Below, piece after piece: positions 3,001-6,000 of a stretch of DNA of 13,180 nucleotides; the first letter of the stretch is position 1, and each line of letters opens with the position of its first letter. The stretch is from a virus (taxonomy: Duplodnaviria; Heunggongvirae; Uroviricota; Caudoviricetes), in IMG/VR virus record IMGVR_UViG_2703719368_000028. The stretch is one strand, 5' to 3'. Position numbers: made by a program.

Positions 3001-6000
3001 GGAAAAGCTGGTAGAAGAAGCTGACACCTCACCAACCGTATAACAGCCCCACCGACATTAAAATATCAGGAGAAAAAAATGAACGCAGTGCTCACAGAAT
3101 TGAACAAATTAGGAAAAGCATCAGCCGAAAGTATTTCTAAAGGTCTCAATATTGATTTGAATGACGTTATTGACACTCTATGGAAGTTAAAAAACCAGGG
3201 GGTAGTAACTGTAAAAAATGGCATCTGGCAGGCAGTTGCAAGGGAAGTGGACAAAAAACCAAATATCGCCTCAGTGCAGCCAGTGCAGCACAACATTATA
3301 GGTGACCTGCTACGTAAATCACGGAAAGAAGCGCGTCGCGCCGGGCGGAAACAGAAACGATGGGAGGGTGCATGTAAGGCGCTGCAAGAACTGAATAAAT
3401 ACCGTGACTTGATCAACGAATTGTCAGAGTGAGCGAATCACAGAGAGAATATTTTGAGAAACAACCCGCGTACATTAATATTGTTTTTCCTTTCTCTAAT
3501 GAAGGGCGGTATCCTGTTATTCGCAGGAACAACATTATTTATTTTTGTTGCCCGGATAACTGCGAGGATAATGACATGAAAATCACATTTGAAAGTTACG
3601 GTTTAACAGCAAGTGTGGTTATCTCCAGCTCTATATTCGAAAGCCGCAAACATCAGCATATCGTTGATGCAGTGAAACTCAAAGCCCCGGAAGTTACCGT
3701 CACAACACATGGACTTTTCAGGATACGAACGACGTTGACTACAACACACCTCTCGGCATGCCGTGTTTATGATATGGCACTCAAGGAATACAACCAGTGT
3801 TCGTCCTGATCCAGCGCGGGCAGTCTTTCGTTGATGCCAACAACTATCCGGTAGAAATATGCAAGGTAACTCTGACTCAGGTGATCTACCGAAGGCTCGA
3901 CGGCAGAACCAGAGCCACTTCAATTGGTGCATTTAATGAAGAATTTGAGCGAATAGAGCACAACGAACTGCATATGATTAAAGCGGAAATTGAGAAGGAA
4001 AAGCATATTGCCAGCCTTCGAAAAATGCGCCGTACATCAATCAACTAACAACCGCCTTCGGGCGGTTTATTATGCTGTTGAAAAACATGTAGAAAAGGAG
4101 AGCATACTATGGAAATCAACTTAATGACCGAAAAAGAAGTTTCTGAGTTGTTACAAAAAAGGCGCACAGCTTTGTATAATTTGCGAAAAAAACACGGATT
4201 CCCTGATCCAGTACTTACTCATCCGGCGCGATATAGCCGTCAGGCCGTTGAACAATGGCTTAAAGCCGGAGGAATTAACCGAGCTGTTTAGCGTGCCAGA
4301 AAATTTTATCAGCATACAACTCATACGCATCTTTCTGTTCCGACAACCAGTCGTGTTTATTATACACGGCCATCACTCCTCCCAGTTCATGCCCCAGCAT
4401 TTTTTCAGTGACGTGGGGCATAATTCCTTCCCCAGATAAATTCGTTACCAGAGAACGCCTAAAATCATGCGTTCTCCATTCAGGAATATCAATTTTCGCC
4501 CTGAGTTTTTTCATGTACAAATTAGCAGACGAACGGTCAATAGGTTTATCTATTTCCTGCCCAGGGAACAGCACATCAAATCCGATATTAAGCAATCGCT
4601 CAATATAAGGCTCAACCTGAGTAAATATCGGACGTCGGATAATATTACCCATCTTTGAATGCTCTTTAGGGGTTGTCCAGACCAGATCTTCCATGTTGAA
4701 CTCACTGGCTGTAGCGAGACGTAGCTCAGAAAGCCTGGCCCCCCATAGCAATAGCAATTGATGTAACAGCTTGTTGGAAGTAACCACTTTTGAGTTCTCC
4801 AGTGCCAGCCAGATCTTTGCCAGTTCCGTATAGGTAAGTACGCGACTCCCCACATCTGGTTTCTTCCCAATATTCTTTACACTGAGTTTGAGTAATTCGC
4901 ATGATGGGATTAACTGGCGGCTGATACACCAGTTAATAACTGAACGCAGTTGTAACAACAGAACACGAGCCTTTTTCTTGTTGAGGCTTTCTTGTTTGTC
5001 AAAAAAGCGAGCCCAGGCCGATACAGGGATACCGGCAACTGGCGAGTCTTCAAACTGTGTGTACATGGTGTTGTACACAACAGATCTATAAAGCGTCTGA
5101 GTATTGGGTTTCAGGCCGCTAACATACTTATCCCACCACTGATCCAAGCATTCTTTTAATGTCAATTCGCCATCACTGGGGGCAAAATAATTTTTAGGGT
5201 TAACTCCCTTCATGTACAATGCGCGCATCTCACCGACGATAACACGTGCGTCCTTCAGTGAAGTGGACGGATAGCGCCCGACAGTAAGACGTACTGGCTT
5301 ACCATTCCAGCGATAACGGTACTGAAACGTGATAGTTCCTGCTGGAGTAATCCGCACACTTAACCCGTCACCATCGGTGATTTCAGCAGGGCCAGAGTAG
5401 GGTTTTCCGTATAGGCCTCGTAGTTTGGTGTCACTCAGTGCCAATGCTTTATATCCTGTACACAAGTTTATAATGTATTCTGTACTCAATATGTACGCAT
5501 TAGCAAGTGAACAAAACACTTTTCAACGCAAAAGAAGATAATCAACCATGAACAAAAACGAACTTACACCTTGATTTTAAAACCATAAAGACGGTATTAT
5601 CAGTCATATGGTGAACAACCAAAATCAATACGCAACAACGTCCTCTTAGTTAAATGGATATAACGAGCCCCTCCTAAGGGCTAATTGCAGGTTCGATTCC
5701 TGCAGGGGACACCATTTATCAGTTCGCCTCCATCCGTACCAGTCCGCAAAATCCCCTGAATATCAAGCCTTCCGTAGATTCACAGTTCGTCATGGTTCGC
5801 GTCAGATCGTTGACAGCCGCACGCCATGACGGGTAAAAAGTGGATAAAATAATTTTACCCACCGGATTTTTACCCATGCTCACCGTTAAGCAGATTGAAG
5901 CAGCAAAGCCGAAAGAAAAACCATACCGCCTACTCGATGGTAATGGCCTGTACCTTTATGTCCCTGTATCAGGGAAAAAGGTATGGCAGCTTCGCTACAA

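Follow-up and report, generated by a model that had tools for sequence, protein, structure and literature searches.

Repeats between argW and intS at an Escherichia coli O157:H7 locus: probable attL arm sites that double as the intS operator

Why should a 9-bp motif crowd into the last few dozen bases before an integrase gene? The question arises in a 13,180-bp stretch of DNA, called the window here, which IMG/VR holds as a Caudoviricetes record (IMGVR_UViG_2703719368_000028). In it the arginine tRNA gene argW is followed by intS, the gene for a tyrosine integrase, and the repeats span the 45 bp from 5831 to 5875, directly in front of intS. An earlier note, made from the sequence, had offered two explanations: either arm-type integrase-binding sites of the attL arm, or an autoregulatory operator that occludes the ribosome-binding region. 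Our answer, which we hold with high confidence, is that the repeats are the arm-type sites P'1-P'4 for the N-terminal domain of IntS in attL, and that the same sites serve as the operator of intS. The evidence supports both of the note's alternatives as correct descriptions of one thing.

As a discovery this carries little weight. Publications from 2007 to 2010 already cover the sites, the promoter, the autoregulation and a reporter test on this very sequence, and the corresponding repeats of phage HK620 were annotated in 2001. The attL/PintS region of KplE1, the K-12 prophage to which our locus is compared below, is said to be treated also in Panis et al. 2007 JBC and 2010 Virology. Its use is practical, for annotation, where the label of the 45-bp block should be attL P' arm sites and PintS operator.

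A motif cluster and its published twin

The first copy, GGGTAAAAA, lies on the plus strand at 5831-5839. Two more, TTTTACCC at 5853-5860 and TTTTTACCC at 5867-5875, are reverse complements of GGGTAAAA(T/A). Our reading of the window agrees with the note on these three, one direct and two inverted within 45 bp. The note had overlooked a fourth, degenerate direct copy, GGATAAAAT at 5842-5850, which makes the order two direct copies followed by two inverted ones. Nor does the last copy end one base before the integrase ATG, as had been claimed; its final base is 5875 and the first base of the ATG is 5876, with nothing between them.

The cluster is real and not a product of chance. Counting both strands, the window has three occurrences of the 8-mer GGGTAAAA, and every one falls inside 5831-5875. 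Among 2000 dinucleotide-preserving shuffles of the window the mean count was 0.45; two copies came within 45 bp of each other in a single shuffle, and three never did. The window-wide tally of 9-mers with at most one mismatch is unremarkable (4 found, 4.0 expected). We call the cluster non-random because its clustering, and not that tally, exceeds expectation.

The locus itself is the argW locus of E. coli O157:H7. From 5640 to 13180 the window is 99.99% identical to O157:H7 strain EDL933 (NZ_CP008957.1), and a 1.5-kb query around the motif finds 100% or 99.9% identity to many O157:H7 chromosomes, where the gene is annotated as intS. The integrase is identical to EDL933 WP_000958700.1 and differs from K-12 IntS at 8 of 385 residues. 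Over the whole int region the DNA is 96-97% identical to phages Sf6, HK620, CUS-3 and their relatives. The identity becomes complete around the repeats: in an alignment of the tRNA-to-int interval, bases 5831-5900 match the attL of the K-12 prophage KplE1 (CPS-53), the attP of HK620, the attP of Sf6 and the attL of CUS-3 at every position. KplE1 also shares the tRNA, the core and the core-to-int distance. Its motif region, -35 box, -10 box and leader are base for base the same as ours; seven mismatches fall between -205 and +81, none of them from the -35 box to the ATG. With the core at 5700-5715, the repeats at 5831-5875 and the ATG at 5876, the repeats lie in the att arm between the tRNA-embedded core and int.

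It is at K-12 that the experiments were done. Panis et al. (2010, PLoS Genet) assigned TTGACA and TAaAAa as the PintS boxes and mapped a T and an A as start sites by primer extension (PMC2951348). Four IntS arm-type sites, P'1-P'4, all with TAAA, lie in that attL; P'1 shares bases with the -10 box, and the promoter is lost when the TAAA of P'1 is mutated (PMC2951348). Binding of IntS to the arm sites is reported in papers that PMC2951348 cites. IntS represses its own promoter about 5-fold, and a delta-intS strain has 5-fold more intS mRNA (PMC2951348). TorI, the recombination directionality factor (RDF), likewise represses PintS; of the five TorI sites in attL, I4 and I5 lie next to the -35 box and mediate this repression in K-12 (PMC2951348).

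Repression has also been measured on our exact sequence. An EDL933 fragment carrying the argW-intC promoter from -205 to +81 has no mismatch to the window, and it comes from a strain with the same integrase protein. IntC supplied in trans repressed the gfp fusion of this PintC 28x in exponential and 10x in stationary phase, in the delta-intS host LCB1024, which is without the KplE1 intS gene (PMC2951348). The comparison of an int reporter with and without integrase in trans, which the note had proposed, was thus already in print. EDL933 differs from the window in having yfdC directly upstream of argW, where the window has prophage DNA. The database records of the phages tell a similar story: in that of HK620 two 'repeat_region attP' features take in the homologous bases, with all four copies, and overlap a 'prophage excision' promoter, and that of Sf6 names the same promoter pX.

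The opposite arm and a switch of motif

Arm-type sites should recur on the far side of the core, and the note had suggested looking for the motif at the other prophage end. It is there in the relatives. K-12 attR and HK620 attP carry GGGTAAAAT-agc-GGGTAAAAT, two direct copies 12 bp apart, some 60-80 bp beyond the core. Two copies are found on this arm in the attP of Sf6 and of Klebsiella phage Chronis as well; in Chronis, whose int DNA is 76% identical, they read GGGTAAAG and GAGTAAAAT at the same far-arm place, and the four-site layout before int is the same. The attR of the present genome is deleted.

A scan of species-representative genomes found IntS relatives in Citrobacter, Pantoea, Edwardsiella, Serratia, Erwinia, Tatumella and other genera. 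In 22 of 23 close relatives examined (57-98% integrase identity) a tRNA-Arg(CCT) lies about 160 nt upstream of int. We aligned 15 argW-linked Enterobacterales homologues (66-98% integrase identity) as a footprint of the interval. Mean column identity is 1.0 for both the -35 box and P'1, where GGGTAAA is invariant, 0.96 for P'4, 0.95 for P'3 and 0.80 for P'2, at which the homologues read GGGTAAA, GAGTAAA or GGATAAA. For the spacers and the rest of the arm it is 0.66-0.73.

More telling is what happens further away. In 8 more divergent integrase loci (57-72% identity to the IntS here, where measured) GGGCATA replaces GGGTAAA in every copy, which gives 17 loci of the GGGTAAA class and 8 of the GGGCATA class. 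The second class keeps the spacing of the first and the overlap with the -10 box (loci L069 and L070 at 440-470 and 640-705; L021, L026-L029 and L059 upstream of 1501). The far-arm pair has changed too: it reads GGGCATA in the attP of the free phages Emek (Salmonella) and phiEt88 (Erwinia). Five residues of the integrase N-terminal domain are class-specific, at positions 23, 38, 49, 51 and 54 (N/D23G, Q38R/H, I/V49T, T51V, K54P/S). Arm-type sites predict such a concerted change, in step with the integrase, of sites that flank the core and stand more than 200 bp apart; local RNA structure cannot explain it. To judge from the sequences, motif class tracks the class of the N-terminal domain; the correlation also follows phylogeny, and we take it as supportive and not as proof. 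The switch from GGGTAAA to GGGCATA with few N-domain substitutions might conceivably define an arm-site recognition code of the DUF4102-type integrase domain. The GGGCATA class appears not to be described in the literature examined.

How the operator may work, and the alternatives

A prophage module of the KplE1/CPS-53, HK620 and Sf6 type sits at the 3' end of argW. PintS, a sigma-70 promoter, lies inside attL because the int gene points away from the core. P'1 covers the -10 box and P'2-P'4 the leader from +1 to +30. Bound IntS would keep RNA polymerase out, presumably by steric exclusion, and hold int transcription at a low, constant level through negative autoregulation. A narrow optimum of IntS concentration for excision has been argued to explain such tight control (PMC2951348). 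In an intact prophage the P' sites combine with P1 and P2 of attR, the core, the TorI sites and IHF to build the excisive intasome. Repression acts on transcription and not through occlusion of the ribosome-binding site, because it is seen at the mRNA level and with transcriptional fusions, and because single P'3 or P'4 mutants still repress. The note's operator therefore survives in part. The published repression by IntS and IntC speaks for it; the ribosome-binding occlusion falls, since the mechanism is transcriptional, with P'1 on the -10 box.

Several points weigh against so tidy a picture. The binding of IntS at these sites rests on the cited literature. The assignment of P'1-P'4 to the four copies, and with it their exact borders, we infer from the paper's text, which speaks of four TAAA sites with P'1 on the -10 box. 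Mutating P'2, P'3 or P'4 singly leaves repression in place, and P'1 is inseparable from the -10 box (PMC2951348). Finally, with neither attR nor torI in this genome the recombination function cannot be exercised.

The closest systems help to place the arrangement. The attP of HK620, Sf6 and CUS-3 (AF335538, AF547987, CP000711; Clark et al. 2001, Casjens et al. 2004) has an identical P' arm. It differs in being a free-phage attP with both arms, where the window has the attL half alone, and in the cII-dependent promoter pI upstream, which reads across attP into int. Satellite P4 (Piazzolla et al. 2006, as cited in PMC2951348) is alike by description: its int promoter overlaps Int sites beside an att core that lies within a tRNA gene, and int is down-regulated by Int and by the RDF alike. 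By the same description it is unlike ours in integrase lineage, motif and tRNA target, and the proposed target of its RDF, Vis, is int mRNA (PMC2951348), where TorI acts on DNA at the -35 box.

Lambda offers a further comparison. Its Int is a bivalent integrase whose N-domain binds short repeated arm sites flanking the core (P1, P2 and P'1-P'3) and so builds the intasome, a plan that the two systems share. Transcription of lambda int comes from pL or pI; no promoter within attL drives it (PMC2951348). Its arm sites are no int operator, since the int promoter lies outside attL.

Could the repeats be something else? That they bind another protein, such as a phage repressor, TorI/RDF, IHF or Fis, has some appeal in that RDF sites occur in attL as well and IHF takes part in the excision reaction in vitro. 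The TorI sites, however, lie upstream of the -35 box as pentamers (GTTCG, GATCG and GTCCG) distinct from the motif, and KplE1 is without a CI regulator module (PMC2951348). In LCB1024, moreover, integrase alone in trans represses, and it is the integrase N-domain whose class the motif follows. We give this idea hardly any credence. We give just as little to the thought that the cluster is a chance or low-complexity feature of an A/T-rich promoter with no specific binding function. A/T-richness is indeed expected in a -10 region and leader, and the 9-mer tally over the window matched expectation. Yet three copies within 45 bp never arose in the shuffles, the motif columns are the best conserved across genera, every copy switches together to GGGCATA, and mutagenesis and binding data are published. 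On the shuffles and the homologue alignment we rejected a chance cluster.

A further proposal is that P'1/P'4 and P'2/P'3 pair as RNA, so that a nested leader hairpin buries the Shine-Dalgarno sequence, abuts the AUG and controls translation. The RNA from 5822 to 5895, Shine-Dalgarno included, does fold well (-18.2 kcal/mol, z = -2.6; equally good folds in 3 of 200 shuffles), and the GGGCATA clade retains the complementarity of P'1 and P'4. Such a fold is, however, the expected by-product of any inverted pair of protein sites. Transcription from the mapped PintS start begins within the hairpin; the native mRNA therefore has no 5' arm, and it is unstructured (-3.4 kcal/mol, z = +0.9). No local hairpin explains why the motif also stands as direct repeats over 200 bp off, on the far attP arm, or why it switches there too; P'2 has kept the motif at loci with a decayed P'3 (L026-L029, L059); and published repression was seen in mRNA and in transcriptional fusions (PMC2951348). 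In Rfam the tRNA was the sole match, with none for the hairpin. We consider this proposal very unlikely and rejected a translational, ribosome-binding-site-occluding RNA element: RNA that starts at 5846 is unstructured, the hairpin needs transcription of the upstream arm to form, and no Rfam family covers it. A modified version is still improbable, if a little less so. The inverted sites may do double duty: in RNA that comes in from upstream a hairpin would mask the int Shine-Dalgarno sequence, while PintS transcripts stay open. Such incoming transcripts would be read-through from argW or from the Stx-type prophage that abuts it, or the pI transcript of the free phage. If this were true, the hairpin would insulate integrase translation from foreign read-through.

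Annotation of the interval and its surroundings

With IntS arm sites and an intS operator as the preferred reading of the repeats, the interval can be annotated as in Table 1. The start-site positions were converted from K-12 coordinates 2464536/2464537, with the ATG at 2464567 taken from the clone limits -223/+64 (2464344-2464630), which puts the starts at -31/-30. The records of HK620 and Sf6 label the 16 bp homologous to the core 'attP core'. Of the pentamers expected at TorI sites, GTTCG and GTCCG are visible in the window in the I1-I2 block, and GTTCG, GTTCG and GATCG at 5785-5809; GTTCG-type pentamers are conserved in the homologues.

Table 1. Features of the argW-intS interval, in window coordinates unless a locus is named.
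Feature	Position	Strand	Basis
argW, tRNA-Arg(CCT), with the att core in its 3' end	5640-5714	+	ARAGORN (single tRNA found); Rfam tRNA, 63 bits
attL core (O site), CTGCAGGGGACACCAT	5700-5715	+	Common to HK620 and Sf6 attP and K-12 attR (alignment)
Putative TorI (RDF) sites I1-I2 (GTTCG ... GTCCG)	5718-5745	+	From the paper's K-12 coordinates 2464409-2464436 relative to ATG 2464567
Putative TorI sites I3-I5 (GTTCG, GTTCG, GATCG), abutting the -35 box	5781-5809	+	Converted from the paper's coordinates 2464472-2464499
PintS -35 box, TTGACA	5810-5815	+	PMC2951348; 100% conserved in 15 homologues; HK620 'prophage excision' promoter, Sf6 pX
P'1 arm-type site, GGGTAAAAA, holding the -10 box TAAAAA (5834-5839)	5831-5839	+	100% identity to K-12 attL
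P'2 arm-type site, degenerate, GGATAAAAT	5842-5850	+	HK620 repeat_region 1631-1652 covers P'1 and P'2
PintS transcription start sites, T5845 and A5846	5845-5846	+	K-12 primer extension, coordinates converted
P'3 arm-type site, GGGTAAAAT on the minus strand	5852-5860	-	HK620 repeat_region 1652-1677 covers P'3 and P'4; column identity 0.95
intS Shine-Dalgarno sequence, GGA	5864-5866	+	Ribosome-binding-site annotation at the homologous position, Sf6 record X59553
P'4 arm-type site, GGGTAAAAA on the minus strand, between Shine-Dalgarno sequence and ATG	5867-5875	-	Column identity 0.96 in homologues
intS (intC in EDL933), 385-aa tyrosine integrase of KplE1/HK620/Sf6 type	5876-7033	+	Protein identical to EDL933 WP_000958700.1
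O157:H7 intS element	Window 5876-13180; L007 20277-34365; L068 8150-22327

In the window PintS reads TTGACA-N18-TAAAAA, with the -10 box under P'1. A consensus promoter scan listed a different candidate, ATGACG-16-AATAAT (5826-5853), which is the promoter annotated in the 1991 Sf6 record X59553. The scan accepts only T as the sixth base of the -10 box, which leaves the promoter mapped by primer extension unlisted. We set the scan's candidate aside, as it disagrees with the primer-extension data.

A mechanical open reading frame (ORF) call and the VT2phi_272 record HQ424691 both begin the integrase at GTG 5840, for a protein of 397 aa. The right start is ATG 5876 (385 aa), because the mapped transcription start lies 3' of GTG 5840 and because the MLT(V/I)KQI start at ATG 5876 is conserved in 25 of 25 homologues. 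The gene should be annotated accordingly.

What remains of the prophage is a truncated module. Downstream of intS come P22-like DNA-ejection genes, a tail-needle fragment, hypothetical genes, a small recombinase, the csc sucrose genes and a 5'-truncated dsdX. KplE1 carries gtrABS where the O157:H7 element has the ejection genes, and it keeps attR and torI, so that it can excise. The window, the EDL933 locus and 21 kb of downstream sequence from strain 472 hold no second copy of the core at up to three mismatches, and tblastn found no torI homologue in any of these or in a 41.5-kb O157 locus. With attR and torI deleted the recombination role is vestigial in this genome, and only the operator role can remain. 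Without a core copy for attR and without torI, intS is a self-repressed orphan integrase, and the element should be recognised as such, beside an argW that Stx phages also use.

Upstream lies a second phage. Unlike at KplE1, a Stx-type prophage abuts the 5' end of argW in the window; positions 4068-5663 are 97.5% identical to VT2phi_272, and its integrase ORF (414 aa) runs on the minus strand from 4275 to 5519. Homology to the phage-free EDL933 locus begins exactly at base 1 of the tRNA (junction 5640), which means that phage DNA now stands in place of the native argW promoter. Within this Stx-phage DNA, at 5571-5600 on the plus strand, lies a promoter-like TTGATT-18-TATTAT. Two unrelated integrases have used argW, one at each end.

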